Shown in pieces: positions 24,129 to 55,746 of a DNA stretch of 64,000 bases; the stretch's first letter is position 1; each line of letters opens with the position of its first letter. The notes beneath the pieces were generated by a model. That model worked only from the letters and a program-made list of their open reading frames with translations, did no database searches and was not told where the DNA came from. Source of the stretch: an uncultured Clostridia bacterium (GTDB taxonomy: Bacteria; Bacillota; Clostridia; TANB77; CAG-508); the NCBI GenBank assembly GCA_963931085.1, contig OZ006973.1, forward strand, positions 670,812 to 734,811, written 5' to 3'. A program made the translations under genes and the position numbers.

Positions 24129-24172
24129 TATTAGGAAGGTATAGCTTAAAAACTAAATAGGTAAATAACAAG

Positions 24173-25177: not shown

Positions 25178-25185
25178 GTAATAAA

Positions 25186-25761: not shown

Positions 25762-25884
25762 AGACTTTGCTAAAAAATTTAAATAAAATTAATTAAACTT
25801 GCTTTCATATTTTTATGAGAGCAAGTTTTTTATGAGATTTGATTAAAAAAGTTAATAAAATGTGTAGAAAATTTGCGAAAAGTA

Positions 25885-25913
25885 ATGACTTTTGTGGAAA
25901 TTTGTGGTATAAT
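25885..25913 (+). promoter_or_regulatory. candidate promoter of the capsule operon (ATGACT -35; extended -10 TGGTATAAT)
   Basis: TGnTATAAT at 25905-25913 lies about 75 nt upstream of the first cps gene, after the vanZ terminator hairpin (25795-25832). Confidence 0.45.
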
Positions 25914-25987
25914 ATTTCCAGTTTTGCTCGAAAAAATTTAAGCACGAAATAAATATATAATATAAAGGATGTAAATTAGGAGGAAAA

Positions 25988-27688: not shown

Positions 27689-27697
27689 GAGTTAGAA

Positions 27698-28453: not shown

Positions 28454-28494
28454 AATTATTTATCAAAAAAAGGAAAAAAATATCAAAAAATACC

Positions 28495-29307: not shown

Positions 29308-29310
29308 AAA

Positions 29311-30537: not shown

Positions 30538-31228
30538 TAAATTATTAAGCAAGCTAATAAGTAAAATAAAAAAAGAACCTTATAAAGTTGATGAAGCTTT
30601 AACGTTAGGAACTATAATTGTACTAGTATGGGATAAAGGTTTTATGGTACTAAGAGGTTTGTTACATAAATTGCTATTTAAAAAATCAAATGGAATAGTT
30701 TTTATAGGAAAAAGAGTTAAGATAAGAAATCACAGAAAAATTAGATTAAATGGAAGTGCAACAATAGAAGATGGCTGTCATATAAATGCTTTATCTAAAG
30801 GTGGAATAACTATTGGTGGTAATTTTTCATTAGGAAGAAATAGTATTATTGAATGTACAGGAGTTATTAGAGAATTAGGTGAAGAACTTGTTATTGGTGA
30901 AAATGTTGGAATAGCAGCTAATGCTTTTATAGCAATGAGAGGTAAAGTTGAAATAGGAGATAATACTATATTTGGCCCGAATGTAAGTATACATGCTGAG
31001 AATCATAATTTTAATGATTTAGAAACACCTATAAGATTACAAGGTGCAACAAGAAAAGGCGTAAAAATAGGAAAAGATTGTTGGATAGGAAGTAAGGCAG
31101 TTATATTAGATGGAGTAAACATTGGAGATCATGTAATTGTTGCTGCAGGTGCAGTAGTTAATAAAGATGTACCAGATTATGCGATAGTTGGCGGAGTGCC
31201 TGCTAAAGTATTAAAAATGAGAAAATAA
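30530..31228 (+). CDS. left-handed beta-helix (hexapeptide) acetyltransferase
   Basis: Hexapeptide repeats ([26 protein letters not shown]). Confidence 0.8.
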
Positions 31229-31243
31229 TGAGGATTTAATAAT

Positions 31244-32374: not shown

Positions 32375-32397
32375 ATATTGAAAGGAAGAAAGAAGTC

Positions 32398-33573
32398 ATG
32401 TCAGAGAAAAAATTAAATGGAACAGTAATTGTAACTTATAGATGTAATGCTAGATGTACTATGTGTAATAGATATAAAGCACCATCTAAACCAGATGAAG
32501 AAATATCAATTGAGACAGTTAAGAAATTACCAAAAATGTATTTTACTAATATTACAGGAGGAGAGCCTTTTATAAGAGAAGATTTACCAGATATAGTTAG
32601 AGAACTATATAAAAAATCTGATAGAATAGTAATTTCAACAAACGGATTCTTTACAGATAGAATAATTAAACTTTGTGAAGAGTTTCCTAATGTAGGAATA
32701 AGAATTTCAATTGAAGGATTAGAAGAAACAAATAACAAAATAAGAGGCTTAGAAGATGGATTCAATAAAGGATATTCAACTTTAAAGAAATTAGTTGAAA
32801 TGAAACATCCTGATGTTGGATTTGGTATGACAGTACAAGATGCTAATGCAAAAGATTTAGTTGCTTTATATGAAAAAGCAAATGAACTAGGAATGGAATT
32901 TGCAACAGCATCATTACATAATAGTTTTTATTTTGTTGAAGCTAAAAATATAATAAAAGATAGAATGATGGTAGCAAAAGAGTTTGAAAAATTAATAAAT
33001 AGATTATTAGAATCAAATTCTCCAAAGAAATGGTTTAGAGCTTACTTTAATCATGGATTAATTAATTACATATTTGGACAAAAAAGATTACTTCCATGTG
33101 ATATGAGTTTTGATACTTTCTTTATTGATCCATATGGAGATGTAATGCCATGTAACGGAACAAAAGATAAAGAAGTAATGGGTAATTTAAATGAACAAAC
33201 TTGGGATGAATTATGGAATTCAGAACAAGCGGAAAAAGTAAGAAAGAAAGTAAGACATTGTGATAGACAATGCTGGATGATAGGATCAGTAAGTCCTGCA
33301 ATGCACAAATACATTTGGGTTCCAGCTTGGTGGGTAATTAGACATAAATTCTTTAGATTCTTTAAGAAACAAAAATATTCAATGTTTGAAAACAAAATTG
33401 TAAGAGACTATAGAGATGGAAAAGTAACTAAAGAAGAACTTGATAGATGTTCTACTTGTGATATGCATGCAAAGATTAATAATGGTTTATCTGAAGCTTC
33501 TATGGAACAATTAAAAGATAAAACAGGTGAAGAAATAGTAGATGCTGATATAGCAAACCAAATGAAGAAATAA
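32398..33573 (+). CDS. radical SAM enzyme with a C-terminal SPASM-type auxiliary Cys clusters
   Basis: CNARCTMC (CxxxCxxC), plus LPCDMSF...DVMPCNG and HCDRQC downstream. Confidence 0.8.
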   Translation: MSEKKLNGTVIVTYRCNARCTMCNRYKAPSKPDEEISIETVKKLPKMYFTNITGGEPFIREDLPDIVRELYKKSDRIVISTNGFFTDRIIKLCEEFPNVGIRISIEGLEETNNKIRGLEDGFNKGYSTLKKLVEMKHPDVGFGMTVQDANAKDLVALYEKANELGMEFATASLHNSFYFVEAKNIIKDRMMVAKEFEKLINRLLESNSPKKWFRAYFNHGLINYIFGQKRLLPCDMSFDTFFIDPYGDVMPCNGTKDKEVMGNLNEQTWDELWNSEQAEKVRKKVRHCDRQCWMIGSVSPAMHKYIWVPAWWVIRHKFFRFFKKQKYSMFENKIVRDYRDGKVTKEELDRCSTCDMHAKINNGLSEASMEQLKDKTGEEIVDADIANQMKK

Positions 33574-33587
33574 ATGAGGTAGGTTAA

Positions 33588-34682
33588 ATGAAAATATTAT
33601 TATTGAATCCAATAATATATACATCAGAAACAAGTCCTGTAATGAAAAAAGAAACCATAAAAGATACGATGGGATACAATTTGTGTGTTGAAATGAAAAA
33701 ACAAGGAATTGAACCAGTTTTGATTGTTGCAGAAGATTATAAGCCTCAAAAAGATGAATCATATGATTTTGAAGTAATCTACTTAAAAACTTGTTGTAAA
33801 AAAATTTTCAAACCTAATTGTTTTCCCTGGCTTAAAAATTTAAACAAAACAATTAAAGATGTTAATCCAGACTTGATTATTTCTAGTGAAGTTTTTTCAT
33901 TATGGTCATTACTTGTTGCAAGAAAATATAATAAAAAAACCATTATTTGGCATGAGTTAGCCAAACACAATAATATGATGAAAAAAATTCCTTCACGCAT
34001 TTGGTATAATATTATTGCAAGATTTTTTATGAAAAATGTTAGAGTAGTTGCTAGAAGTAATAATGCTAAAGATTTTATTAAGAGATATTGTAATAATGTT
34101 AGCGAAGAATTTATAGATCATGGCGTTGAATTAGATAAATTTAATTATTTAAAAGAAAAAGAAAATGTATTTGTTGTTGTTTCTCAGTTAATTGATAGAA
34201 AAAGAATAGATGGAATTATTATTGAATTTAATAAGTTTTTAAAAAAACACAAAGAGTATAAATTAATTATAATTGGTGATGGTGATAAAAGACAGAATCT
34301 AGAGAGCTTAACTAAGAACTTAAATATTTCTTCAAATGTAGATTTTAAAGGAAATAAAAGTCATAATGAAATCATCCCAATACTAGCTAAATCAAAAGCA
34401 ATGATTATAAATACGATAAAAGATAATAGTATGTTAACAATTGTTGAATCAATTGCTTGTGGGACGCCTATAGTAACAACTGATGTGCCATACAATTGTT
34501 ATTATATTGAAAAAGATAATTTAGGTATAGTTTGCAAAGATAATATTAAAAGTAATGATTTAGAAAAAATAACTAAGGAAAATGATAAATATGTTAAGAA
34601 TTGTATAGATTATAGATATTTTGTTTCAAACGAATATCATATAAGACAATTTATAAGTGAAAGTAAATTTTTAAATAATTAG
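33588..34682 (+). CDS. glycosyltransferase (GT4-like)
   Basis: C-terminal ESIACGTPIVTTDVP GT-B motif. Confidence 0.7.
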   Translation: MKILLLNPIIYTSETSPVMKKETIKDTMGYNLCVEMKKQGIEPVLIVAEDYKPQKDESYDFEVIYLKTCCKKIFKPNCFPWLKNLNKTIKDVNPDLIISSEVFSLWSLLVARKYNKKTIIWHELAKHNNMMKKIPSRIWYNIIARFFMKNVRVVARSNNAKDFIKRYCNNVSEEFIDHGVELDKFNYLKEKENVFVVVSQLIDRKRIDGIIIEFNKFLKKHKEYKLIIIGDGDKRQNLESLTKNLNISSNVDFKGNKSHNEIIPILAKSKAMIINTIKDNSMLTIVESIACGTPIVTTDVPYNCYYIEKDNLGIVCKDNIKSNDLEKITKENDKYVKNCIDYRYFVSNEYHIRQFISESKFLNN

Positions 34683-34694
34683 GAGTATATAGAT

Positions 34695-35669
34695 ATGAAA
34701 AGTATAGCATATGTGCTACCATACTTTGGAAAGTTTCCAAAAGGTTTTGAGTTATTTTTGCTTAGTTGTAAAAATAACTCTACAATAGATTGGCTAATTT
34801 TTACAGATGATAGGACAGAATATGATTATCCGTCAAATGTAAAAGTTACATATTATACATTTGAAGAAATAAAAGATAAAGTACAAAAGAACTTTAATTT
34901 TAAAATAGTTTTAGATAAACCATATAAATTTTGTGATTATAAACCAGCATATGGAGAGATTTTTTCAGAAGAGTTAAAAGGCTATGATTTTTGGGGAATG
35001 TGTGATCTCGATTTAGCATGGGGAGATATAAGAAAATTCATTACAGATGATCTTTTAAACAAATATGAAAGAATTGGTTTTTTAGGACATTCTACAATTT
35101 ATAAAAATACGACTGAAGTGAATTCGAGATATAGAACAATATTTGATGGAAACAATTATAAAGTTGTTTATACTAATCAAGGGGCATATGCTTTTGATGA
35201 AGTAGGAATGGATAATATTTATAAAATATTAAATATACCATATTACAAAGAAATAATATTTGCAAATTTAGAAAAGTATAGTTACGGTTTTTCATTAGAT
35301 TTAATGCCGAAAGAAGAAGATTTTAAAAATAAGTATCAAATATTTACTTTAGAAGATGGAAAATTATACAGATATTACTTAAATAATGGAATGATAGAAA
35401 AAGAAGAATATTTTTATATACATTTTTGGTGTAGACCAATGACATATAGACCTAAAGTTTATGATATAAATAAAAAGTATATAATTTATCCTGATGTTGT
35501 GGATTATTTAAAAAAAGATATTACACCTAAATTAATTTACAAAAAAGGAAAAGGAAATATGATTATATATTATATTAAGAGTATATGGAAAAATAGAAGA
35601 AAAATTACAATAGAAAAGATTATTTTTAATATAAAAGGAATGATTAATTATAGAAAAACAAACAATTAA
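34695..35669 (+). CDS. putative nucleotide-sugar-dependent glycosyltransferase of an uncharacterised family (DxD-like CDLDLAWGD)
   Basis: Position inside the cps operon and a DxD-like motif. No well-known family recognised. Confidence 0.4.
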   Translation: MKSIAYVLPYFGKFPKGFELFLLSCKNNSTIDWLIFTDDRTEYDYPSNVKVTYYTFEEIKDKVQKNFNFKIVLDKPYKFCDYKPAYGEIFSEELKGYDFWGMCDLDLAWGDIRKFITDDLLNKYERIGFLGHSTIYKNTTEVNSRYRTIFDGNNYKVVYTNQGAYAFDEVGMDNIYKILNIPYYKEIIFANLEKYSYGFSLDLMPKEEDFKNKYQIFTLEDGKLYRYYLNNGMIEKEEYFYIHFWCRPMTYRPKVYDINKKYIIYPDVVDYLKKDITPKLIYKKGKGNMIIYYIKSIWKNRRKITIEKIIFNIKGMINYRKTNN

Positions 35670-35688
35670 TTATAAAGGAAAGTTTAAT

Positions 35689-36909
35689 ATGTTATTTGAA
35701 AAGAATAAAACAATTAATATTTATAATGCTATATTTGGATTTACTATAATTGTATATTTATTAAGCGAAGGATGTCCATACGTATTTGACTGGTTAGATA
35801 AATTACATATAAAACACTTTCTTCTTATGTTTTCAATTTTTTTAGGTATTACTAATTTTAAAAGAAATAAGGCTGAAAAATGGAGTGATAATATATTAAA
35901 AATAATATTAGTTAATACGTTAATATTATATGTAATTTCACTTTTATACCAAATATGGAATGGAGCATTTAAATTTTATGCAATAGAAGAAGTTTATTAT
36001 TTTTTAGCTCCTTTAGTATTCGTTTTTTTATTATTTAATAGATGTAAAAACGATAGTATAGATATATATATTAATATATTTTTATATGTTGGTTTATTTT
36101 CTTTTGTTGTCACAAGAATTCAAGAAGGAGTATTTAATTTAGAAAATTTAAAAAGCATGTTTAGTTTAAAATCATTATTTATTGATTCCGTTTCGGCAAT
36201 GAATGAAAGTGATTTGTCCGTTTTTTTTATGATTTTAACAATATATTATGCATATAAAGGTAAAAAAGGGAATATGATTTTATCTGCTATTGGTACTTTT
36301 TTGGGTTATAAAAGGATAGCTATACTGTTTTTGATTGCTTTTTTAATAATTTACAGAATTATAAAAAATAAACACAAAAAAGTAAATACTTGTATATTTA
36401 TATTAACAATATTGGTATTTATTAGTGCACCCTTTATTGTTTATTATATGTGTAATGATAGCTTTGCCATGTGGTTTTACAATAGGTTTGGTATAGATTT
36501 TAATGAGTTTACAATGACTAGATTTGAAATTATTAATACAGTTATAGATGCTGATTTAAATAATTATGGTTTGGGTACTGTTACTAACTTTTTAGAAATA
36601 AGAAATCATGCAGGGCAGACTAATATGCATAATGATATTTTAAAAATTTATATGGAGACAGGAATAATAGGAACTATTTCGTTTACTTTATCTTATTTTA
36701 TTATATGTAGAAAAAGTTATTTTTCATACTTGATTATGTTATTTATTTTTATCGAATTATTTGTAGCTCATTTTATAGGTGTTGGAACAGTGAGTTTCTG
36801 GATACTAGCTTATTTAACAATATTCGAAATAAATAAAGATGTTTATAGAAAAAATGAAATGAATTTAATTAATAAAAAACAGGAGGGTAATTATGAAGAA
36901 ACTATATGA
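35689..36909 (+). CDS. Wzy-type oligosaccharide repeat-unit polymerase (O-antigen ligase-like, about 10 TM)
   Basis: Polytopic membrane protein in a cps operon. Confidence 0.65.
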
Positions 36910-37480
36910 TATTTGGGATAAAATAAAGAGGAATTATATAAATTTGAAGTTAATAATTATAAGGAATGGCTGGAAAAAAGCAGAATACTTAAAAAATAAA
37001 AAAATATTCTATCATATAGGAAGTAATTGCTATTATCATCCTAATATTTTACCTGCTGAACCATTTTTAGTGTGCTTGCATGACAATGTAGTTATTTCAG
37101 CTGGTGTTAGATTAATTACTCATTCAGCTTTGAATTGCGTTTTTAATAACGAAGACGATAACAGATTTAGCTTTAAATGTAAGTACGGTAAAATAGAAAT
37201 TCATAATAATGTTTATATTGGAGCAGATGCTATTATTAATTATGGAGTAACTATTGGTGAGAATTGCATTGTCGCAGCTGGTGCAGTTGTTACAAAGGAT
37301 GTACCAAGTGGAGTAGTTGTAGGCGGTGTGCCGGCAAGAATAATAGGAAATTATGAAGAAATAAAAGAAAAAAATAGAAAGTTTTCGAAAAAATTTGAAA
37401 ATTTAAAAGAAGATGTGACTGTTAAAAACATGCTCAATATTCTTCCTGTTGAATTTGATATAGATAGAGAGAGAGAGTAA
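36893..37480 (+). CDS. hexapeptide-repeat O-acetyltransferase (maltose/galactoside acetyltransferase-like)
   Basis: Hexapeptide repeats ([25 protein letters not shown]). Confidence 0.8.
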
Positions 37481-38932
37481 ATGGGAAAAAATAAAAAGAA
37501 TTATTTGTATAATATTTCATACCAACTATTTGCATTATTTGTTCCACTAATTACTACACCATATATTTCAAGAACTCTTAGTGTTGAAGGAATAGGAACA
37601 TATAGTTATACATATTCAATGATGAGATATTTTTGGTTGTTAATGGCATTAGGAACTGCAACATATGGTACAAGATTAATTGGAGTTTGTTATAAAAGTA
37701 AGAAAGATAGAAGTGAAAATTTTTGGGGATTATTTATACTAAAATTTATTTTATTTATGATATTTGGTTTTTGCTACATAATTTATAGTTTATGTTTTGC
37801 AAATAGTAAAATTATTGCTTTAATACAGGGAATTTATTTAATAGGAGTATTACTAGATATTACATGGTTCTTTCAAGGAATGGAGGATTTTGGAAAAGTT
37901 GCCTTCAAAAATTTCATTGTAAAAGTTTTGAATGTTATATTTATTTTTATATTTATAAAAAATGAAGACGATTTAATTTTCTATATTTTAGGATTAGCAG
38001 TTTTTCAACTTATTGGAAATGCTTCAATGTGGTTATCGTTGAAGAAGTATTTAATAAAAGTAAATATTAGGGATGTGAAACCATTTAAACATCTGAATGA
38101 ATCAATTCAATTATTTTTACCAAGTATTGCAACACAAATTTTTTCTGTATTAGATAAATCAATGATAGGTTGGATAACAAAAGATAATTTAGAAAACGGA
38201 TATTATGAACAAGCATTAAAGATTGTTGAAATGGCCTTAGTATTAGTTACGACATTAGGAACTGTTATGATTCCAAGCATATCAAGAGCTTTTAGTGAAA
38301 GAGAGAGAAAAAAAGTTAAAACATATATAGACAGATCTGTTAAATTTACATTATTTTTATCATTACCAATGATGTTTGGCTTAGTTGGAATTTCAGATAA
38401 ATTTGTTCCAATATTTTTTGGAGAAGAATACTATCCTAGTGCAATAATACTAAAAATATTAAGTATATTGTTTGTTTTTATGGGTTTAAACTCTGTTTTT
38501 GGAACGCAATACTTAATATCAATAAATAAGCAAAACACTCTAACTAAAATGATGTTAATTGGAGGTTTTATTAATATAATTGGAAATTTTATATTTATAT
38601 ATTTCTTTGGTGCAGCTGGGGCTGCAATAGGAACAGTTTTAGGAGAGTTTGCAACAGTATTAATAGAAATTATATATTTAGAGAAAACAAATCAATATTC
38701 ATTAAAAAATTCAAAAATTAATTTCATTAAGTATTTAATATCATCATTAATTATGTTTATATTTTTAATATTCTTTAGTAAATATATTAAAAATATAATA
38801 GAATTATTGTTATGTATAGGTGTTGCTAGTTTTATCTATTTAATTTTTACAATTTTGTTAAAGGATGAATTTATAATAGATGAATTAAAAAATATTAAGC
38901 AAAAATTAGTTGAAAAATGCTATTTAAAATAA
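37481..38932 (+). CDS. Wzx-type polysaccharide flippase (MOP superfamily)
   Basis: About 12-14 TM segments and a typical Wzx N-terminus (LYNISYQLFALFVPLITTPYISRTL). Confidence 0.8.
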   Translation: MGKNKKNYLYNISYQLFALFVPLITTPYISRTLSVEGIGTYSYTYSMMRYFWLLMALGTATYGTRLIGVCYKSKKDRSENFWGLFILKFILFMIFGFCYIIYSLCFANSKIIALIQGIYLIGVLLDITWFFQGMEDFGKVAFKNFIVKVLNVIFIFIFIKNEDDLIFYILGLAVFQLIGNASMWLSLKKYLIKVNIRDVKPFKHLNESIQLFLPSIATQIFSVLDKSMIGWITKDNLENGYYEQALKIVEMALVLVTTLGTVMIPSISRAFSERERKKVKTYIDRSVKFTLFLSLPMMFGLVGISDKFVPIFFGEEYYPSAIILKILSILFVFMGLNSVFGTQYLISINKQNTLTKMMLIGGFINIIGNFIFIYFFGAAGAAIGTVLGEFATVLIEIIYLEKTNQYSLKNSKINFIKYLISSLIMFIFLIFFSKYIKNIIELLLCIGVASFIYLIFTILLKDEFIIDELKNIKQKLVEKCYLK

Positions 38933-38979
38933 ATTTATTATTCTAGAAGTTACTAATAATGTTTTTAGTAACTTCTTTT

Positions 38980-40107
38980 CTATTTTACTTTCTTATCTAT
39001 CTTTTTATCAATTGATTGAACTGTATCAGAAGGAGTGTAATCATCTTCACTGAATAGCTGCTTATGAAGTTTTTTTACATCATCTTCTAAACTAGTTGGA
39101 ACACTATAATAAACTTTATTTATCATTTGTCCTTTTTTATGATAAGGAAAGCCAAAGTTATCTGTAATATTTATAGATGCAACTTGTGGTATCATGGCCA
39201 TAATTTCATTTTCTGTAATATTTGTTGAAACATGAGGAAGTATTTCATCTGCTAAATCATTTAATTCAGGAATGCTTAAATGTTTTACTTTTTCAAATAC
39301 TAGATTTAATACATCTCTCATACGTTCTGTTCTTTTATAATCTCCACCTTCTGTATAACGAATCCTTGCATAAGATAGAGCTTGAATTCCATTTAATTTA
39401 TAATCTCCTTCTTTAGTAATGTGTTTTGTATTAGTCTTATATATTCTATTTAATTCATCTATATATCCATTTATGTATTTAGTTTCTTCTTTAGTAATAT
39501 GCATATTTATTCCACCAACTTTATCTACTACTGTACGTACTGTATCAAAGTTTATCGCAACAAATTCAGTAATATTTAAGTCTAAGTTTTTATTTAAAGT
39601 GCTTAGTGCAAGTTTTGGACCACCATAAGAATATGCATGAGTTACTTTGTCTAAACCATATTCATCTATATCTAAATAAGAGTCTCTATATACTGACATT
39701 ATTTTAGCTTCTTTAGTTTGTTCATTTAAACTTAATATCATTATACAATCGCTTCTATATCCTTTACTGAAAGTATCTTTTCTAGCATCAATACCAAATA
39801 GAGCGATGTTTCTATAAGTAGATAAGTTTGATTTAACAGCTTCATCAATATATATTTGTGATTTATCTATTGGGACATATTGTATTTTACTTAATTTGCT
39901 TTTTAAGTAAAAATATCCACTTGCTGCTAATATAAGATCTATTATTATGAATACAACAAATATTATAAGAAGTATTTTTAAGATTGATTTTCTTCTTTTT
40001 TTCTTTTTTTCGATTGCTATTAAGTCTTTTACTTCATTATTTGGTTTAATTGTTGTATTTTTTATTTCTTCATTTTTATTATTTTTATTTGCTATATTCT
40101 TTTTCAA
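38980..40107 (-). CDS. LytR-CpsA-Psr (LCP) family protein
   Basis: N-terminal TM plus an LCP domain (RSDCIMILSLNEQT...). Convergent with the cps operon. Confidence 0.85.
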   Translation of the reverse strand: MKKNIANKNNKNEEIKNTTIKPNNEVKDLIAIEKKKKRRKSILKILLIIFVVFIIIDLILAASGYFYLKSKLSKIQYVPIDKSQIYIDEAVKSNLSTYRNIALFGIDARKDTFSKGYRSDCIMILSLNEQTKEAKIMSVYRDSYLDIDEYGLDKVTHAYSYGGPKLALSTLNKNLDLNITEFVAINFDTVRTVVDKVGGINMHITKEETKYINGYIDELNRIYKTNTKHITKEGDYKLNGIQALSYARIRYTEGGDYKRTERMRDVLNLVFEKVKHLSIPELNDLADEILPHVSTNITENEIMAMIPQVASINITDNFGFPYHKKGQMINKVYYSVPTSLEDDVKKLHKQLFSEDDYTPSDTVQSIDKKIDKKVK

Positions 40108-40274
40108 GTATTTTCCCTCTTTCTAAAAAATATACTAATATATTATAACCCATTTTTAGGAAAAAGTAAAGGAAAAGAGTGCTTTGCGCTAAGGTTTGAT
40201 CAGTGTTTAAAGCAAAAAAATAAAACCATGGTAGTGTTCCATGGTTTTGAATGTGAGGGGGAATTTTTAATTAG

Positions 40275-40775
40275 TTACTTTGTCTGAGGAACGTCCCAGA
40301 CATTTAGTTTTTTATCGATGATATAGTTTTTCCCTTCAACCGTAAACTGAAGGGATGTTTCTGTTCCGGATGATGATAGATAGACATTTCCGTCTTCATC
40401 ACAGTAGCCCGAACATTTTTCGATTTCTTTGAAATCGGTGACGCCGGGAATTTTAAAAAATATGGTTTCGCTTCCGTCAATATTGCCTATTATGAATTCA
40501 AGGCTAGGATCTTCAGAAACATATCGATATCCGAATACTGGACCATAAGTCCAATTTAAAATCTCGAAATACCGATAGTCTCCGCTATAGTTAAACATAT
40601 AATTCTGGCCTTGCGGAAGATTTTTGAAAAAGCTTCTTGCGTCTTCAAGATCCTCATCAAAGGAATCAGAGACCTGCAAGCTTTTGCTTGTGGGTTTGGA
40701 CTGGAAAGAAATCCAGCACACACCTACCAACAAAATAACAGTTACAATAATAAAAGCAGTCCAAAACTTTTTCAT
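40275..40775 (-). CDS. hypothetical lipoprotein/secreted protein in a GC-enriched islet (about 40% GC against about 27% background)
   Basis: Signal peptide MKKFWTAFIIVTVILLVGVCW. Strongly atypical composition visible directly in the sequence. Confidence 0.55.
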   Translation of the reverse strand: MKKFWTAFIIVTVILLVGVCWISFQSKPTSKSLQVSDSFDEDLEDARSFFKNLPQGQNYMFNYSGDYRYFEILNWTYGPVFGYRYVSEDPSLEFIIGNIDGSETIFFKIPGVTDFKEIEKCSGYCDEDGNVYLSSSGTETSLQFTVEGKNYIIDKKLNVWDVPQTK

Positions 40776-40914
40776 AATAATACCATACTGCTACACCTCA
40801 CATTCTGCAGCCCCTTATATTATAATTATATTACGTTTGCTATATTATGTCAATTTTGGCACTTTTAGTATAAAAATATCTTTAAAGTTTATAATAAAAT
40901 AAAGGAGTGATTTT

Positions 40915-41850
40915 ATGTATAATTTTAGAACTGATTTAGCTTTAGAAAGAAGAGATATTTATAAAGAGACTAATAATATAAAAGGAGAAATAGATGGTAT
41001 CATATCAGAAGAAGAGGAAGTTTCAAAAACTATAAAAGTTACTAGAGTAAATGTTATAAATGAAAATGGTGCAAAGTCTATTCAAAAACCTATTGGAACA
41101 TATACAACTATTGATGTAGAGAAGATGAGAAATATTACAGAAGAAGAGATTAGTAAGATATCAAATACGATGTCTGAGGAATTAAAAAAATTAATAAATA
41201 AACATGTAGGAAAAACAGATGAAATTTTAATAGTAGGACTTGGAAACGAGTATTCAACTCCGGATTCTTTAGGTCCAAAAGTCGTAAGAGAAGTTGATGT
41301 AACAAGACATATATTTAAATACTTGCCACAATTTGTCGAAGATGGAGATAGAGAAGTATCTGCTATAGCTCCAGGAGTACTTGGCGTAACAGGGATTGAA
41401 ACACAAGAGATATTAAAGGGAATAGTAGATAATGTAAAGCCAAAATTAATAATTGCAATAGATAGTCTAGCATCTAAAAGTATTGACAGGATAAGTAGTT
41501 CTGTTCAATTATCTGATACTGGAATAATACCGGGAGCGGGCGTTGGGAATAAGAGAAGAGAGCTTTCTAGAGATACTCTAGGAGTGCCTGTAATCGGGGT
41601 TGGAATACCGACTGTTGTTGAGCTTGCAACTTTAGTATCAGATGGTATTGATATATTTATAAAAACTCTTCAAGAAAAAGCTGAGTCAAATGATTATTTA
41701 AATAAGCTAAAGGAAAATGACAAATATGAAGAGGTAAAAGAAGCTTTAAATGTAGGTGAATATAATATGATAGTAACTCCAAAAGAAATTGATGATTTGA
41801 TTGAGAATATGAAGAATATAGTAGCTAGAGGAATAAATTATGCAATTTAA
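40915..41850 (+). CDS. gpr: germination protease (spore protease Gpr)
   Basis: MYNFRTDLALE N-terminus and conserved GITGIE / DTGIIPGAGVGNKR / DTLGVPVIGVGIPTVV blocks. Confidence 0.9.
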   Translation: MYNFRTDLALERRDIYKETNNIKGEIDGIISEEEEVSKTIKVTRVNVINENGAKSIQKPIGTYTTIDVEKMRNITEEEISKISNTMSEELKKLINKHVGKTDEILIVGLGNEYSTPDSLGPKVVREVDVTRHIFKYLPQFVEDGDREVSAIAPGVLGVTGIETQEILKGIVDNVKPKLIIAIDSLASKSIDRISSSVQLSDTGIIPGAGVGNKRRELSRDTLGVPVIGVGIPTVVELATLVSDGIDIFIKTLQEKAESNDYLNKLKENDKYEEVKEALNVGEYNMIVTPKEIDDLIENMKNIVARGINYAI

Positions 41851-41854
41851 ATAA

Positions 41855-41912
41855 ACATATTTACAACCGTGCTACAAAATGTTAAAATGTAGGCACAATT
41901 GTAAAACAATTG
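41855..41912. repeat. palindromic repeat element, copy 1 (TTTACAACCGTGCTACA ... TGTAGGCACAATTGTAAA)
   Basis: 17-bp inverted arms with a 12-13 nt spacer. A second copy lies at 43360..43420. Confidence 0.85.
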
Positions 41913-41929
41913 TGAAGAGAGGGATTTAT

Positions 41930-42514
41930 ATGGAAGATAAGATATTAGAAATAATGAAAAATAATAATAATATTATAACACCATCAAAGTTAGAGAAAGC
42001 AGGAATATCAAGAGTTTATTTGTATAATATGGAAAAAGATGGACTTATTGAAAAAATAGATAGGGGAATATATGTAACAAAAGAATTTATATATGATGAA
42101 TATTATTTATTTCAATTTAAATATCCTAAAACTATTTTTTCACACAATACAGCATTATATTTTAATAATATGACTGAAAGAACTCCTATAAATATGGATG
42201 TAACAATATGCAGAGAATATAATCCACATAGATTTAAAGACTTAGTAAATATTTATAAAGTTAGCAAAGAAATATTTGATTTAGGGGTTGTAGAAAGAAA
42301 ATCACCACAAGGGATGGATGTTAAAACATATAATTTAGAAAGAATAATATGTGATATTATAAAAGATAAAAATAGTTTGGATATTGAAACAAGAAATAAA
42401 GTTATTAGAAAATGCATTAAAAGTAAAGAGTTTAATTCAAATCTAATGTTTGAATATGCAAAAAAAATGAAAATATATGACAAAGTTAGAAATCACATGG
42501 AGGCAATTATATGA
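41930..42514 (+). CDS. abiEi: AbiEi-family antitoxin/transcriptional regulator (type IV TA)
   Basis: N-terminal AbiEi_4-like wHTH (ITPSKLEKAGISRVYLYNMEKDGLIEKIDRGIYV). ATGA overlap with the next gene. Confidence 0.75.
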   Translation: MEDKILEIMKNNNNIITPSKLEKAGISRVYLYNMEKDGLIEKIDRGIYVTKEFIYDEYYLFQFKYPKTIFSHNTALYFNNMTERTPINMDVTICREYNPHRFKDLVNIYKVSKEIFDLGVVERKSPQGMDVKTYNLERIICDIIKDKNSLDIETRNKVIRKCIKSKEFNSNLMFEYAKKMKIYDKVRNHMEAII

Positions 42515-43343
42515 TTAAAAATGCAAAGAGCTTAATTGACGAATCAAAAAATAAAGCTGTACAAAATAATATTACAGTAAACGAAGTACTACAGAATTAC
42601 ATGTTTGAGAGAATATTAGAAAGACTATCTATTTCTGAATATAAAAATAATTTTATATTAAAAGGATGAGTATTATTATCTTCTATAATGGGATTGATAC
42701 TAGAACTACAATGGATATGGATACTTGTTTAAAAGGTATAAACTTAACGGAAGAACAATTATATAAAGTTTTAAAAAATATTTTAGATACAGATGTAAAA
42801 GATGGAGTGACTTTTGAGATAAAAAATTCTAAACCTATAAGGGAGGATGATGAATACGGAGGTTTAAAATATAATATATTAGCCAAGTTTGATAATATTA
42901 AAGTTAATTTAAGTATAGATATAGCAACAGGAGATGTGATTACACCAGGTGAAATAGAGTATAATTATAAGATGATGTTTGAAGACAAAGCATTGAAGAT
43001 AATGACATATAATATAGAAAGTATTATTGCAGAAAAATTTCAAACAATAATTTCAAGAAATGTATTAAATAGTAGAATGAAAGATTTTTATGATTTATAC
43101 TATTTAATAAAATATTCGACTTTTTCAAAAGATGATTTAAGACTTGCTATAGAAAAGACTTTTGATAAAAGAAATACAGATATTAAATTAATTAATTCTA
43201 ATATTAGTGTTATTCAAGAAAGTGATCTTTTACAAGATTTATGGAAGACATATTCTCAAAAGCATAAATATACTAAAGATATAAAGTTTGAAGACATAAT
43301 TGAGACAATTAAAAAGATAAGCAAATTAATTACTCAAAAATAG
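42511..43343 (+). pseudogene. abiEii: AbiEii/AbiGii-family nucleotidyltransferase toxin, frameshifted at an A4 run near 42657-42668
   Basis: The N-terminal 52 codons (…NNFILKG) stop at TGA. The rest of the family-typical sequence (FYNGIDTRTTMDMD..., DUF1814-like) continues in the -1 frame. Confidence 0.7.
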
Positions 43344-43359
43344 AATAACTAGGTATTAT

Positions 43360-43420
43360 AAAACATATTTACAACTGTGCTACATTTTTAAGATTTTGTA
43401 GCACAATTGTAAAAAATAAT
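43360..43420. repeat. palindromic repeat element, copy 2 (TTTACAACTGTGCTACA ... TGTAGCACAATTGTAAA)
   Basis: Arms near-identical to copy 1; only the spacer differs. Confidence 0.85.
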
Positions 43421-43439
43421 AGATTTATTATGAAAGCAA

Positions 43440-43565
43440 GGAATTCCTTGCTTATTTTTATATTTTTATATTTTTATATTTTTATATTTTTATATTTTTA
43501 GTTTTATATAATTTTTAATTTTTTAACTTTTTAACTTTTTTTTATTTTTATTCATTTTTATTCTT
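43440..43565. repeat. AT-rich microsatellite-like tract ((TATATTTTT)n, then TTTTTAAC repeats)
   Basis: Direct reading. Confidence 0.7.
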
Positions 43566-43634
43566 TAAATTTGTTTGTTACTTATAAGTATTTATGATAA
43601 AATACAAAAAAGAAATTTACTCAAGGAGGAAATA

Positions 43635-44186
43635 ATGAATATCTATTATGTAAGACATGGACAAACAGATTGGAATAAAGTAAGAAGATTACAAGGAAGA
43701 ACAGATAATCCATTAAATAAAGTAGGAATTGAGCAAGCAAAAAAGACAAGAGATTTATTAAAAAATGAGAAGATAGATTTAATAATATGTTCTCCACTTA
43801 AAAGGACAGTAGAGACTGCAAACATAATAAATGAGGGTAGAAACATAAAGATAATAAAAGATGAAGGTTTTATAGAAAGATCTTTTGGTGAATATGAAGG
43901 TGAATATAGTGCTAATACACCCTATGATGATTTATGGGATTATAAGAAAGATATAGATTTAGGGGAAAATGGAGAAAAGATGAGTGAGCTTTTAGCAAGA
44001 GCAAAAAATTCTCTTGAAAGAGTAATTAATACTTATTATCCAAAAAATATATTAATAGTAGCACACGGTGGACTTGGAAGAGCTGTAAAATGTTATTTTA
44101 ACGGACTTCCAAAAGATACTACTTGTCTTTCTAATTTAGAGCCTAATAATTGTGAAGTATTAAAATATGAAATAAGGAGAGGTTAA
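43635..44186 (+). CDS. histidine phosphatase (phosphoglycerate mutase-family) protein
   Basis: RHGQTDWN catalytic motif and a second His in AHGG. Start chosen at the ATG with an AAGGAGG ribosome-binding site; the track ORF starts at 43575. Confidence 0.8.
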   Translation: MNIYYVRHGQTDWNKVRRLQGRTDNPLNKVGIEQAKKTRDLLKNEKIDLIICSPLKRTVETANIINEGRNIKIIKDEGFIERSFGEYEGEYSANTPYDDLWDYKKDIDLGENGEKMSELLARAKNSLERVINTYYPKNILIVAHGGLGRAVKCYFNGLPKDTTCLSNLEPNNCEVLKYEIRRG

Positions 44187-44187
44187 G

Positions 44188-44637
44188 ATGCAAGATATTA
44201 AAATGGGAATAGGTGTAGGAGTAATATTATTTAATGATAAAAAAGAAGTATTACTTGGACTTAGAAATTCAGATAAAGACATAGCAGATAGTGATATGAG
44301 ACTTGAAGGTACATATACACTTCCAAGTGGAAAAGTAAGATATAAAGAGTCTTTTGAACAAGCAGGAATTAGAAAAGTGAAAGATGAGACTAATTTAGAT
44401 GTTTCTAAAATAAGAGTAATAAGTCTTCAAAATGATATTAATGAATATGCACATTATGCAACTATTGGTTTAATTGCAGATGAATATTCAGGCAAAATAA
44501 AGATAAAACCAACAAACGAACTTGTAAGATGGGATTGGTTTAGTTTAGATAACTTGCCTAAAAATTTATGTTTTCCTAGCAGAAAGATTTTAGATTGCTA
44601 TGTAAATAATAAATTTTATAATGAAGAGATAGAGTAG
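44188..44637 (+). CDS. NUDIX hydrolase
   Basis: Nudix box-like GKVRYKESFEQAGIRKVKDETNL. Two nt after the upstream stop. Confidence 0.75.
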   Translation: MQDIKMGIGVGVILFNDKKEVLLGLRNSDKDIADSDMRLEGTYTLPSGKVRYKESFEQAGIRKVKDETNLDVSKIRVISLQNDINEYAHYATIGLIADEYSGKIKIKPTNELVRWDWFSLDNLPKNLCFPSRKILDCYVNNKFYNEEIE

Positions 44638-44698
44638 TTATTAATTATCTATAATATGTAGATTTTATAATAATTAAGATGTAAAAAGAGGAAGAAAT

Positions 44699-45238
44699 AT
44701 GAATGTAGTATTTTTAGATTTTGATGGAGTAATTAATACACCTACAGGATATGATGTAAATGGAAGTTATAGAGATTCTTTTAATTATCCATCAGATGGA
44801 AGAGTAAATAATTATAATGCAATATGCTTATTAAATAAATTATGCAGAGAACAAGATTTAGCTGTAGTTGTTTCTAGTAAAGGTAGTTGGAGGTATACTT
44901 TTAAAAAAGACGAAAATGGTGAATATACTATAAGAAATTATAGAAGAATATTGTATGATAGTGGACTAGATGATCATACATATATTTATGGACATACTCC
45001 TGCTACAGATTTTAGTAAAGATATGGAGATAAAGATTTTTTTAGAAAAACATCCAGAAATAGAAAAGTTTATAATATTAGATGATTGCGAAGATGAGATA
45101 AGTGATGACTTAAAAGCTTATTTAGTATTATGTGATACAGCTGAGGGATTTACAGAAGAAAAGTATAAGGAAGCTGTAAGAATCTTAAAAGAGCAAAAAG
45201 AAATAAAAAGAAGTAATTCATATCAGGAGAATAGATAA
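44699..45238 (+). CDS. small HAD-superfamily phosphatase-like protein
   Basis: Motif I FLDFDGVIN and motif IV ILDDCEDE. Confidence 0.6.
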   Translation: MNVVFLDFDGVINTPTGYDVNGSYRDSFNYPSDGRVNNYNAICLLNKLCREQDLAVVVSSKGSWRYTFKKDENGEYTIRNYRRILYDSGLDDHTYIYGHTPATDFSKDMEIKIFLEKHPEIEKFIILDDCEDEISDDLKAYLVLCDTAEGFTEEKYKEAVRILKEQKEIKRSNSYQENR

Positions 45239-45240
45239 AT

Positions 45241-46149
45241 ATGCAAAATAGCGAAAATAAAGTGAAAAGAAGGCAAAAGTTTTTAAAGGTCTATATTGAG
45301 ATTACAAATGTATGTAACTTAAGATGTTCTTTTTGTCCTGAACCTAAAAAAGAGAAGAGATTTATAAGTGTAGAAGAATTTGAAAATATAATAGAAAAAA
45401 TATGTGATTATACAGATTTAGTATGTTTTCATATAAAAGGAGAACCTTTATTAAATCAAAATTTAGATAAATTTTTAAATATATGTGAAAAGTATAATTT
45501 AAAAGTAAATATTACAACTAATGGACTTTTAATAGAAAAGTGGATAGATGTATTTAAAAAATCAAATTCATTAAGACAACTTAATATTTCACTTCATTCA
45601 GTAGAGCAAAATGAAAATATAGATGAAGAAAAATATTTAAATTATATTTTTGAAAACGTAGAAAATATAAGAGAATCTTCAGACATAATAATATCATATA
45701 GGTTATGGAATCTAAATTCTTTAGAAAATAATAAAATGAATAAAAAGATATTAAATGAAATAGAAAAGTTTTATAAAATAAAGAAAATAGAAAAAAGGGC
45801 AAGAAAAGAAAAATTTATAGAACTTGAAAGTAATGTTTTTTTAAATCAAGATTATAGATTTGTATGGCCAGATATAAATGGAAAGATAATAAATGAAAAA
45901 GGAAAATGTTATGGCTTAAGAAATCAACTTGGCATTCTTTCTGACGGCACGATAGTGCCATGTTGTTTAGATTCAAATGGTGATATTCCTTTAGGAAATA
46001 TTTTTGAAATAGATTCTTTAGAAGAAGTAATTAATTCAAAAAGATCTATAAATTTAGTTGATGGATTTAAGAAGTGTGAACTACGAGAGAATCTTTGCAA
46101 AACTTGTGGATTTATAAAAAGATTTGAAGTAGAAGAAAAGAAGAAATAA
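45241..46149 (+). CDS. radical SAM enzyme (about 300 aa) with a C-terminal twitch/SPASM-like Cys cluster
   Basis: CNLRCSFC (CxxxCxxC) and C-terminal C...GTIVPCC...C..C. Three nt after the HAD gene. Terminator hairpin at 46150-46185. Confidence 0.8.
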   Translation: MQNSENKVKRRQKFLKVYIEITNVCNLRCSFCPEPKKEKRFISVEEFENIIEKICDYTDLVCFHIKGEPLLNQNLDKFLNICEKYNLKVNITTNGLLIEKWIDVFKKSNSLRQLNISLHSVEQNENIDEEKYLNYIFENVENIRESSDIIISYRLWNLNSLENNKMNKKILNEIEKFYKIKKIEKRARKEKFIELESNVFLNQDYRFVWPDINGKIINEKGKCYGLRNQLGILSDGTIVPCCLDSNGDIPLGNIFEIDSLEEVINSKRSINLVDGFKKCELRENLCKTCGFIKRFEVEEKKK

Positions 46150-46253
46150 AAATTTTATTTCTTCTTTTTTGGTATTATTATTTTTCTTATTCTAATTTAA
46201 TCTAGATTAATTTTATATATCTAATTGTTTTATGTTTTATTTATCTTTTATAA

Positions 46254-46950
46254 TTATCCAATTAAAGATCTAATAATACAGAATAATGTTAAATGAACGG
46301 GGTAGAATGCATAAAATCCCATTTTTATGTATTTATTAGATTTACCAAGTTTTCCGTTATATGCAGCAATTAATAATAATGAACCAACAGCAAAGATTGA
46401 AAGTGCTAATTGTTCTACTATTAAAGGATAATAAAATGGTTCAAATGCTGGAACTATTGTTAATCTACTTATAACTAAAATTAAAGAAGCAATAAGCATC
46501 ATAATCATTTTATGAGCTCTTAAAATGTAAAATATAGCAATTAATAATACTCCAAGCATACCATAATCTACATGTAATAGTTCTCCTGCAAAAGAAGTTA
46601 GGAGAACTAAAAAAAGTCCAATAGGTTTACTTTTTGATTTATCATAAAATCTGATTGCAAGCAATCCAAACGCTAAAGTAAAAAATATATTTAAATATGG
46701 CTCTCCATTTAGATATGGCTCTAATAATAAATATGCAGGAATCTGAGATATTACTGCAAAAATTAAAAGCCTTCCTAAGTATTTAGCAAAATTTCGTGTA
46801 TGAATATAACCTTCAGAAATAAAAAAAGCATATATTGGAAAAGCAATTCTTCCGAAGAAAATTATTTACATTATTAGTTCCAAAAACAAATCTTGTATGA
46901 TCTATAAACATAGAGATACATGCAATAATTTTTAATAAAAATGCTGACAT
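46254..46950 (-). pseudogene. traX: TraX-family membrane protein, frameshifted near 46850-46858
   Basis: N-terminus MSAFLLKIIACISMFIDHT (46950 downward) stops early. The remainder (IFFGRIAFPIYAFFISEGY...) continues in another frame into ORF 46254..46664. Confidence 0.65.
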
Positions 46951-47083
46951 AATATTTACTCCTTCTTCAAATATTATATCAATATAAGTTAAAATAAAGC
47001 AATATAAAAGATGATAATAAATTTGTAATTGATAAATATTAATATTTATGCTATATTAATACCATAGAATAAGGAGTGATATT

Positions 47084-47392
47084 ATGAGTGAAAAAATATA
47101 TACAATTAATGAAATAAAGAAGATACTGAAAGATTTATTAAAAGATAAACCTGTATATCGTGTTATTCTTTTTGGTTCTTACGCAAAACATGAAGCAACA
47201 AAAGAAAGTGATGTGGATTTAATAATAGATACTAATTCAGAATTAAAAGGGTTTGCTTTAATAAAATTAATATGCGAAATAGAGGAAAAACTAAAAAAGA
47301 ATATTGATGGATTCGAAAAATATGAAATAATCGAGGGTTCACCAATAGATAAAGAAATAAAAGAAACAGGAGTTATAGTATATGAAAAATAA
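47084..47392 (+). CDS. mntA: MNT-type minimal nucleotidyltransferase antitoxin
   Basis: ILFGSYAKHEATKESDVDLIID (GSx...DxD) motif. Confidence 0.8.
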   Translation: MSEKIYTINEIKKILKDLLKDKPVYRVILFGSYAKHEATKESDVDLIIDTNSELKGFALIKLICEIEEKLKKNIDGFEKYEIIEGSPIDKEIKETGVIVYEK

Positions 47393-47723
47393 AGAATATA
47401 TGTCCATAAAAAAGATGATAGAGTATATAGATAAAGCTTTAAGATATACAAAAGAATGTAATTTCGAAACATTTTCAAATAATGAGGAAAAAGTAGATGC
47501 AACGATTTTTGCGATTAGCCAAATAGGTGAATTAGTTAAAAATATTAGTAAGGAAACAATGGAAAAATATACTAATATAGAATGGATTATTATAAAGAAC
47601 TTAAGAAATAAAATTGTTCATGATTATGATGGAATAAAATTAAATCTGATATGGGATATAATTACAAATGATATAGTACAATTAAAATTGAATTTACAAA
47701 AAATATTAGATAATAATAAATAA
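47382..47723 (+). CDS. hepT: HepT (DUF86) toxin of a HepT/MNT type VII TA pair
   Basis: RNKIVHDY (Rx4HxY) motif. Overlaps the MNT stop. Confidence 0.8.
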   Translation: MKNKEYMSIKKMIEYIDKALRYTKECNFETFSNNEEKVDATIFAISQIGELVKNISKETMEKYTNIEWIIIKNLRNKIVHDYDGIKLNLIWDIITNDIVQLKLNLQKILDNNK

Positions 47724-47811
47724 AAAAATAAAATTAAAGTAAAGTTCAAAAAACGCTCAATTTTTGAGCGTTTTTTGATTTGCTTTTGATAAAAAATATA
47801 TAGCCTAGTTC

Positions 47812-48666
47812 TTATTTTTTTATTACTTTATTTTTATAATAGTTACATATTTCGCAATCAGTACATATATAAATTGTATCTTCAAATATTAGTTTCAATG
47901 TTTGAATGAATTCATCTTCATTATCTATCAAATGAATATAAAGCTTTTTAGGAACAATATTTAATAGAGTATTTAAAGAATAATCATTAGAAGAAAATTC
48001 AATATTTGAATATTTATTTAAAAAACTTGTATCTAGAGAAGTGTTTATAATATTAAAGCTAGAATCTAATAATATACTTTCATTATTTAAATATATAAGA
48101 TGTACAATATCACAAGTTGATTTTTGTTTTTCTAAATAGTTTTTTAATAGTTTAATAAATTCAAAATATTCTCTTTTAATTAAATAATTATTTACTGATA
48201 AATCTACAACATAGTCTAATACTTCTATATAATCTTTTAATCTAAATGTTATAAATCCATCTAATATCATTTTTTTATTTCCTTCTTTAAAATATTCTTT
48301 TAAAGAGATATTAATTAATTCTTTCCTTCTGCTATGTTCATCAGAAGATATTAATTCATCTATTATATTTTTAATTTCAATTTGTTCATAATCTAAAAAA
48401 TAAAAATAATTTGACATTAATAATTTATTTAAAATTTCATTTTCATAAGTATTTATTATAGATTCAGTAATATAATTAGAAAGTTTTTCATAAAATGTAT
48501 TAATATTATTTCCTTTGTAATGAATAAAAATATTATCATATATTTTTAATTTCTTTTTTTTAATAAAAATGTCATCAGAAATTATTTTAGATATATTATT
48601 AAAGAAATAATCTATAAATTTATCATTATTAGTTTTTATACAAAAAGAAGACATATTTTCCTCCAA
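47812..48666 (-). CDS. hypothetical protein; C-terminal CTDCEIC Cys knuckle
   Basis: 284-aa ORF with no family recognised. Confidence 0.5.
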   Translation of the reverse strand: MEENMSSFCIKTNNDKFIDYFFNNISKIISDDIFIKKKKLKIYDNIFIHYKGNNINTFYEKLSNYITESIINTYENEILNKLLMSNYFYFLDYEQIEIKNIIDELISSDEHSRRKELINISLKEYFKEGNKKMILDGFITFRLKDYIEVLDYVVDLSVNNYLIKREYFEFIKLLKNYLEKQKSTCDIVHLIYLNNESILLDSSFNIINTSLDTSFLNKYSNIEFSSNDYSLNTLLNIVPKKLYIHLIDNEDEFIQTLKLIFEDTIYICTDCEICNYYKNKVIKK

Positions 48667-55670: not shown

Positions 55671-55746
55671 GCTTCTATAGCTCAGTTGGCAGAGCGCATC
55701 CATGGTAAGGATGAGGTGGCCAGTTCGATCCTGGCTGGAAGCTCCA
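55671..55746 (+). tRNA. tRNA-Thr (anticodon GGT)
   Basis: Manual cloverleaf: 7-bp acceptor stem (one G-U pair), D-arm GCTC/GAGC, anticodon stem CATCC/GGATG with loop ATGGTAA, T-arm GCCAG/CTGGC, and an encoded CCA. Confidence 0.9.

Follow-up and report, generated by a model that had tools for sequence, protein, structure and literature searches.

The 64 000-nucleotide stretch of an uncultured Clostridia bacterium analysed here (contig OZ006973.1; referred to as the window) contains four co-directional plus-strand genes, which encode a PGAM-branch-1 histidine phosphatase (PGAM), a Nudix-fold protein, a HAD_SAK_2 phosphatase (HAD) and a BtrN-like twitch radical S-adenosylmethionine enzyme (rSAM). 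Judged from their sequence, these genes appear to form a real, tight and constitutively promoted chromosomal operon, which is part of the native, conserved backbone of one Clostridia lineage and is not a defence-island resident. A first-pass annotation of the same DNA had reported the four open reading frames (ORFs) at identical coordinates, and its assignments (RHG, Nudix, HAD and radical SAM) agree with the Pfam domains of all four proteins. It had, in addition, placed the operon in a defence-type island and proposed a possible anti-phage function.

The genomic setting was examined by tblastx synteny comparison with four related loci (L001, L003, L087 and L089), together with the gene tables of relatives including L088. 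The genome loci considered in this study were the best 80 of at least 540 and the metagenome loci the best 80 of 224, with flanks of 6–8 kb; most relatives are metagenome-assembled genomes (MAGs), and the ORFs of the fetched loci were called mechanically. In L001, whose rSAM is 81 % identical to that of the window, the gene order was found to be yebC-gpr-PGAM-Nudix-HAD-rSAM-(traX remnant)-ytxC-GH57-DUF4912-GT5. In the relatives, gpr and traX/ytxC are the immediate neighbours of the operon on either side, and the region is collinear with L001, L003, L087 and L089. In the window, the flanks are as previously described, with AbiEi and AbiEii upstream, and a frameshifted traX followed by an MNT/HepT pair downstream. 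However, both of these toxin–antitoxin (TA) modules are missing from L001, L003, L087, L088 and L089, and the operon holds the same gpr...traX-ytxC backbone position in relatives without either module, which overturns the defence-island setting. Moreover, yebC and gpr are adjacent in L001, L003 and L089, and the window holds three insertions relative to those loci (Table 1), while L087 and L088 bear out the two TA insertions. All three insertions are common only to the window and L007, its 98 % species representative.

The G+C content of the operon (0.22–0.27) is no different from that of the rest of the ~25 % G+C window, and no compositional anomaly was observed. PADLOC detected AbiE, and its candidate-system PDC-S09 models matched the MNT protein, but no system model matched the four genes. 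A phage origin of the rSAM was rejected, as a scan of viral contigs revealed no close relatives and merely generic rSAM matches of 20–36 % identity.

The single transcription unit proposed in the first-pass annotation was supported by short spacers, a conserved extended −10 element and a terminator following the rSAM gene. The spacers measure 1, 61 and 2 nt; the gaps of 2, 62 and 3 nt given earlier were coordinate differences, and the tightness that they conveyed still stands. A promoter-consensus scan did not exceed chance overall (45 sites versus 55.8 expected from shuffles), and the single promoter match therefore carries little weight. Rather, the case for a real promoter appears to rest on its conservation upstream of whichever gene leads the operon: TTTATGATAAAAT, which comprises the extended −10 element, recurs in L001 directly 5′ of the first operon gene, and the variants TTTATGATAGAAT and (shorter) ATGATAAAAT are present in L087 and L089, respectively, even though the first gene there encodes the Nudix protein and not PGAM. 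The hairpin at the rSAM stop codon has a predicted stability of −15.8 kcal/mol (z = −5.0), with none of 200 shuffled sequences being equally stable, and five terminator-like sites were found between positions 41500 and 48000, compared with 0.8 expected. A further G+C-containing hairpin with a T-run, at 43434–43453, closes the upstream AbiE module. With its own promoter and with terminators both upstream and downstream, the four-gene unit would therefore represent an autonomous operon with a housekeeping-type promoter. A 10/12 consensus match at 44595–44622 was considered as an internal promoter for the Nudix–HAD spacer and dismissed, because this spacer (61 nt here) shrinks to 8–11 nt in L087 and L003 and the match is not a conserved feature. 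No riboswitch or leader RNA family of Rfam was found upstream of the operon at gathering thresholds.

Table 1. Features of the operon and of the insertions in its surroundings (window coordinates)
Feature	Position	Strand	Details
Predicted sigma-A-type promoter	43575..43603	+	−35 TTGTTA, 17-nt spacer, TG-extended −10 TAAAAT; consensus score 9/12
Putative ribosome-binding site AGGAGG	43624..43629	+	5 nt ahead of PGAM ATG; read from sequence
PGAM-branch-1 histidine phosphatase	43635..44186	+	183 aa; Pfam His_Phos_1 (PF00300), E 7e-46, 156.7 bits
Nudix-fold protein	44188..44637	+	149 aa; Pfam NUDIX, E 2.9e-15
HAD_SAK_2 phosphatase	44699..45238	+	179 aa; PF18143, E 2.5e-18
BtrN-like twitch radical SAM enzyme (rSAM)	45241..46149	+	302 aa; Radical_SAM E 1e-17, SPASM E 3e-11
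Predicted AT-rich intrinsic terminator	46134..46172	+	overlaps rSAM stop codon; hairpin + T-run
AbiEi/AbiEii insertion	~41855-43599		absent from relatives (tblastx, gene tables)
MNT/HepT insertion	~47014-47835		absent from relatives (tblastx, gene tables)
Capsule/exopolysaccharide insertion, ~16.7 kb	24130-40892		between yebC (23400-24128) and gpr (40915-41850)

The rSAM protein matched PF04055 with 65.1 bits (cutoff 29.5), and its CX3CX2C motif (C25, C29 and C32) was shown to be invariant in an alignment of 29 sequences. In the same alignment, five C-terminal cysteines are invariant (C223, C241, C242, C286 and C289), while C279 is not conserved. The first-pass annotation had described this region as a twitch/SPASM-like cluster. 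The extra C-terminal cluster was confirmed, but a full SPASM domain was not: the CX2CX5CX3C block and the seven-cysteine motif are absent, and the Pfam SPASM match (43.8 bits) covers the twitch-equivalent part, indicative of a single-cluster twitch domain. In a profile search of PDB sequences, BtrN ranked at the top (4.5e-15), and the alignment extended over the core as well as the C-terminal segment. BtrN has four C-terminal cysteines, which ligate its auxiliary cluster and align with C223, C241, C286 and C289, and both proteins have the same C-x17-C-x44-C-x2-C spacing (17, 44 and 2 residues between). The rSAM is therefore predicted to be a BtrN-type twitch enzyme with one auxiliary 4Fe-4S cluster that is fully cysteine-ligated.

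Like BtrN, the 2-deoxy-scyllo-inosamine (DOIA) dehydrogenase of butirosin biosynthesis and prototype twitch rSAM, the window protein falls among single polypeptides of 250–300 aa with a CX3CX2C motif, and neither has a peptide-recognition domain. It differs from BtrN in its low identity (17–21 %), in the extra invariant C242, in the lack of aminoglycoside genes nearby and in belonging to a family that is widespread in Bacillota as a lone gene. An orthologous relationship with BtrN was rejected on account of this identity and of the absence of aminoglycoside genes from all 86 loci. The comparison values for other rSAM proteins were 16.8 for SuiB, 16.4 for both anSME and SkfB, 15.0 for viperin, 10.3 for QueE and 8.4–9.6 for the RNA-modifying enzymes RlmN, Cfr, MiaB and TYW1. 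In agreement with the first-pass annotation, the rSAM was assigned to no characterised subfamily: no NCBIfam model reached its cutoff (best MoaA, 60.9 bits versus 284), viperin (NF038283) scored 35.8 bits versus 180 and matched residues 20–127 only, and QueE scored 34.8 bits versus 260. The PADLOC pVip model (44 bits, residues 17–127) likewise covered only the generic rSAM core. An exhaustive profile search recovered 675 cluster representatives (50 % identity) at E ≤1e-30, and the best 150 of these were all single-domain proteins of ~235–346 aa without fusions.

Among the phosphohydrolases, PGAM carries RHG at residues 7–9 and a downstream AHGG, as expected of branch-1 histidine phosphatases. 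No NCBIfam equivalog, including CobC, PspA and GpmB, matched it at cutoff (best CobC alpha-ribazole phosphatase, 116 bits versus 163). Its closest PDB sequences are PspA, PhoE and CobC, and it resembles broad-specificity phosphatases. The Nudix protein scored 56.9 bits against the Pfam cutoff of 21.1, and its best PDB matches were 4kyx (deposited as ADP-ribose pyrophosphatase MutT; 2.8e-20) and Arabidopsis NUDX1. While this upholds the Nudix fold called previously, the Nudix box is not canonical: G48-x5-E54-x7-R62-K63-V64-K65-D66-E67 reads RKVKDE instead of REUxEE, with Lys replacing Glu after Arg. All four orthologues share R62-K63-V64-K65 and E67, and L087 has Glu in place of D66 (RKVKEE). 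The HAD protein exhibits motif I, DxDx(T/V), and the acidic pair of motif IV, with a Pfam score above the cutoff.

Within the lineage, the gene cluster was identified in six distinct lineages, at the same locus every time. The four-gene unit is conserved only shallowly across these relatives: PGAM-Nudix-HAD-rSAM was found as a whole only in the window/L007 and L001/L002 (98 % and 81 % rSAM identity, respectively). At 64–68 % rSAM identity, a HIT gene takes the place of the Nudix gene, and PGAM is lost or has diverged to 36 %. Thus, L003 and L088 (65–68 % rSAM identity) encode PGAM-HIT-HAD-rSAM, and L087 and L089/L090 encode Nudix-HAD-rSAM without PGAM. A His_Phos_1 gene 6 kb upstream in L087 was considered as a displaced PGAM orthologue and rejected, being 28 % identical with VHG instead of RHG. 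In L003, PGAM is 36 % identical to that of the window, whereas HAD and rSAM are each 65–70 % identical. PGAM thus appears to be a variable accessory member of the operon. The HAD–rSAM pair is its sole fixed element, with a 2-nt junction in the window and, in relatives, junctions between a 1-nt overlap and 6 nt. In this lineage, the rSAM gene is therefore regarded as having HAD_SAK_2 for its fixed and probably translationally coupled partner.

The HIT gene was observed in the Nudix slot at 6992–7450 of L003 and 4146–4604 of L088. Its product contains an HxHxQ motif, which reads NHFHVQLIPR in L003 and NHFHIQLIPR in L088, has a CPTC...C...C cysteine cluster at the N-terminus and exhibits weak DcpS_C and CwfJ_C_1 matches. 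We take HxHxQ, as opposed to HxHxH, to be the signature of the GalT/phosphorylase branch of the HIT superfamily, which would imply a nucleotidyl transferase or phosphorylase and not a simple hydrolase. Members of both the Nudix and HIT superfamilies cleave nucleotide phosphoanhydrides, and the replacement of Nudix by HIT, rather than its simple loss, suggests selection for such cleavage in the operon. In L089 (GCA_947628215.1), the rSAM gene is split into ORFs of 225 and 84 aa (6540–7443) and the GH57 gene is also split (9226–10816), these being more likely assembly frameshifts than real pseudogenes.

Based on these findings, our preferred reading, held tentatively and at somewhat less than an even chance, is that of a lineage-specific housekeeping operon whose substrate would be a sugar or nucleoside in nucleotide-linked or phosphorylated form, acted on by BtrN-type radical chemistry. 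Should the enzymes share one pathway at all, the Nudix or HIT enzyme would split a nucleoside-diphosphate-X (NDP-X), such as an NDP-sugar, a dinucleoside polyphosphate (NpnN) or a nucleoside triphosphate, and HAD, along with the PGAM-type phosphatase where present, would strip the remaining monophosphate(s). Hydrogen abstraction by the twitch rSAM would take place at a hydroxylated carbon, either in the resulting sugar, cyclitol or nucleoside or in the phosphorylated precursor of that compound, and would be followed by two-electron oxidation of the BtrN type or by a related rearrangement, with the auxiliary cluster serving as electron sink. The phosphohydrolases may supply or scavenge the rSAM substrate; the substrate class and the order of the steps are provisional. 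The combination of radical chemistry on a nucleotide or sugar small molecule with stepwise dephosphorylation, as put forward in the first-pass annotation, is thus retained as plausible and is favoured as housekeeping metabolism, but not in its immunity role.

A number of observations weigh against this preferred reading. The linkage is seen in one lineage at one syntenic locus, the flanking genes of which are conserved equally, so that the conservation of the neighbourhood is not above background synteny. Furthermore, the Nudix box is without the canonical Glu after Arg, and the hydrolase activity of this protein is putative. Outside the lineage, relatives of the rSAM were found in at least 540 species-representative genomes, including those of Clostridium, Peribacillus, Bacillus, Gottfriedia, Tissierella, Lachnoclostridium and Turicibacter, and a general link with phosphohydrolases in these other genera was rejected by three approaches. 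Phmmer found no PGAM, Nudix or HAD homologue within 8 kb at 79 loci with an rSAM identity of ≤56 %; clustering of rSAM neighbours across 86 loci gave a largest family present in 12, reflecting within-genus synteny; and a Pfam census of 150 immediate neighbours had no NUDIX, HAD, HIT or His_Phos_1 domain among the 25 commonest. Similarly, a general HAD_SAK_2–rSAM link was rejected: the family profile detected no rSAM at any of the 80 metagenome loci that carry HAD_SAK_2 homologues, the 135 neighbours of distant HAD_SAK_2 genes were heterogeneous in a Pfam census (including two RNA_ligase and one RtcB), and a 46 % identical HAD relative lies between yunB and a PP-loop ATPase gene.

The sampled rSAM neighbours in these genomes were unrelated to one another (a membrane protein, thioredoxin-reductase-like and prephenate-dehydrogenase-like proteins, MntP, MsrA and an RpiR regulator), and in the other genera sampled no defence-type gene recurred beside the rSAM gene. 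The rSAM would accordingly seem to act as a stand-alone gene in most Bacillota, and for this reason the phosphohydrolases are best viewed as lineage-specific accessories and not as obligatory partners. The shallow conservation of the unit and the membership of its rSAM in a widespread, otherwise stand-alone family are largely what the first-pass annotation had said would speak against its proposal. In three Clostridia/Lachnospiraceae MAGs (L018, L019 and L022), a gene for a Pyr_redox_2 thioredoxin-reductase-like flavoprotein of ~287 aa was observed 3′ of the stand-alone rSAM gene, overlapping it by 1 nt or separated from it by up to 14 nt, and its product might serve the family as electron donor or co-substrate enzyme. 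A short HAD_SAK_2 gene of 41 % identity was also noted in a phage-like region of Logan contig SRR26920248 (L092; 6001–6477), next to genes for an NAD-dependent DNA ligase, an HNH protein, a nucleoside deoxyribosyltransferase, an NT5C-type nucleotidase, a thymidine kinase and gyrase/topoisomerase. The window HAD also matches phrog_1818, and together these observations suggest that short HAD_SAK_2 proteins are common in phage nucleotide-metabolism modules. A literature search on HAD_SAK_2 retrieved no papers.

The first alternative, which we consider rather unlikely though deserving of attention, is that the four genes share a promoter but no pathway, three generic house-cleaning phosphohydrolases and an orphan rSAM having been joined by chance and kept by regional synteny. 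Such a mixed operon would account for the stand-alone rSAM genes at all 79 more distant loci, for the unrelated contexts of HAD_SAK_2 relatives and for the instability of the PGAM slot (36 % identity in L003, none in L087 and L089), and it is consistent with the equally well conserved order of gpr, traX, ytxC, GH57 and DUF4912. It fits less readily, however, with the HAD–rSAM junction, which stays coupled (1-nt overlap to 6-nt gap) in all six lineages, with the divergence of HAD and rSAM in step (65–70 % each) while PGAM falls to 36 %, and with the like-for-like replacement of Nudix by HIT at the same position.

A role in RNA or polynucleotide end-processing appears improbable. HAD_SAK_2 would here act as a 3′-phosphatase, the Nudix or HIT enzyme would remove a 5′ pyrophosphate, cap or adenylate, PGAM would remove 2′/3′ phosphates and the rSAM would modify RNA. 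Although PF18143 was defined from RNA-repair multidomain proteins (Pfam description) and the weak DcpS_C and CwfJ_C_1 matches of the HIT protein point in the same direction, a ligase, kinase and nuclease are all missing from the operon and its flanks, and the rSAM is unlike RNA-modifying enzymes. The RNA ligase-type genes near distant HAD genes are in line with such a role, yet this association is sparse (3/135).

The anti-phage system of the first-pass annotation, which would produce a chain terminator or some other modified nucleotide or nucleoside, is very improbable. Its sole support was the island context, and the TA modules flanking the operon in the window are insertions, absent from relatives that keep the operon in their backbone. 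Precedents for rSAM-based defence exist in pVip and in Ophion, which consists of an rSAM, a PHP phosphoesterase and a phosphoribosyltransferase (PRTase) (bioRxiv 10.1101/2025.09.30.679545). Both resemble the operon in combining an rSAM with nucleotide-metabolising or phosphoesterase partners, and in the underlying idea of radical chemistry followed by dephosphorylation. In contrast to these systems, the operon is without PHP, PRTase or kinase genes, occupies a backbone position and has no conserved defence association; membership of Ophion was rejected because both the PHP and the PRTase genes are absent and the rSAM is not viperin-related. Neither does HXS, encountered in the rSAM-defence literature, fit the operon. 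The Nudix protein gave a weak match to PADLOC PDC-S07 (24.5 bits), but pVip models fit the generic rSAM core only, with the viperin score at 35.8 versus 180. Moreover, close rSAM relatives are not found on viral contigs, the composition is normal, the predicted promoter is of a conserved housekeeping type, and the rSAM family has neither a conserved partner nor recurring defence neighbours in the other genera sampled. The least probable alternative, with the phosphatases being irrelevant and the rSAM representing a peptide or protein maturase of the anSME type or of the type acting on peptides that are ribosomally synthesised and then modified post-translationally (RiPPs), is contradicted by the small size of the rSAM (302 aa), in which no RiPP recognition element, peptide-recognition or extra N-terminal domain was found, by its one auxiliary cluster instead of two, and by the absence of a conserved adjacent small ORF or precursor across 86 loci (an 80-aa upstream ORF cluster occurs in two, L041 and L070) and of a transporter or protease partner.

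A search of the literature for this combination of genes yielded only the tunicamycin cluster, in which the rSAM TunB is accompanied by the histidine phosphatase TunG and the pyrophosphatase (Nudix) TunN (PMC6965331). In that cluster, biosynthesis depends only on tunABCDEH, with tunFGKL apparently redundant, tunG and tunN being outside the six essential genes and tunG being missing from some clusters (PMC6965331). The nonessential TunG and TunN parallel the variable PGAM and Nudix proteins of the operon, this being a likeness of gene types that is closer than the one to Ophion. Unlike the actinomycete tunicamycin cluster, the Clostridia operon is without epimerases, glycosyltransferase, deacetylase, acyltransferase and ABC transporter, and tunA–F- and tunH-type genes were found in neither the window flanks nor the related loci. 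TunN and TunG, beside TunB, have reportedly been proposed to supply or scavenge substrate. The twitch enzymes BlsE, DesII, SpeY and AbmM, which act on nucleoside-sugars, an NDP-sugar and cyclitols, rank high in fold searches with the window rSAM, and the sugar- or nucleotide-linked small molecules that they use as substrates form the class suggested by the Nudix/HIT partner. However, these enzymes are 13–17 % identical to the window rSAM and are located in dedicated antibiotic clusters, whereas the latter has no surrounding biosynthetic cluster.

Further features were observed in the regions surrounding the operon. An 8-bp AT-rich tandem repeat, TATTTTTA (~14.6 copies, 43453–43572), occupies the stretch from the AbiEii terminator to the operon promoter; tblastx found nothing in L001 to match the segment containing this repeat, and the repeat may belong to an insertion joint. 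AbiEi (41879–42514) looks intact, while the AbiEii toxin gene is probably frameshifted, as it is split into ORFs of 52 aa (42511–42669) and 225 aa (42666–43343) in different frames, the latter spanning positions 62–273 of the 294-position PADLOC AbiEii model. Downstream, a traX pseudogene on the minus strand (46254–46950) consists of a 45-aa N-terminal ORF (46813–46950) and a 136-aa C-terminal ORF (46254–46664) with frame breaks in between. Its counterparts are intact in L003, L087 and L088 (231–232 aa) and measure 84 aa in L001 and 159 aa in L089; being intact in some relatives, reduced in L001 and broken in the window, traX is suggested to have decayed repeatedly beside the operon. The capsule/exopolysaccharide insertion has genes for one Bac_transf sugar transferase and three GT4 glycosyltransferases, along with those for an epimerase/dehydratase, a Wzz-type tyrosine kinase, Wzy, an LCP protein and a Wzx flippase. 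Rfam at gathering thresholds detected a single RNA gene in the window, a tRNA-Thr (GGT) at 55671–55746.

In conclusion, the defence-like appearance of this locus stems from two TA insertions beside a backbone operon, which removes a false lead and illustrates that a role in defence is poorly supported by gene adjacency observed in just one genome. The components are of known kinds, generic phosphohydrolases and an orphan twitch rSAM in a lineage-specific arrangement, and the rSAM belongs to a sizeable, uncharacterised BtrN-like family that is common in gut and soil Bacillota. As a more speculative and improbable extension, the radical chemistry of this orphan family might be of an undescribed kind, in which a nucleotide-derived sugar or nucleoside common in Bacillota is oxidised or rearranged, the operon preserving the rest of the pathway. 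If so, Nudix/HIT cleavage of NDP-X and dephosphorylation by HAD and PGAM would lead to a free nucleoside or sugar that is modified and has a part in signalling, salvage or antagonism. The fixed HAD and interchangeable Nudix/HIT proteins of this lineage constitute the only contextual substrate clue found so far for the rSAM family, and provide enzymologists with a short, testable list of substrate classes.

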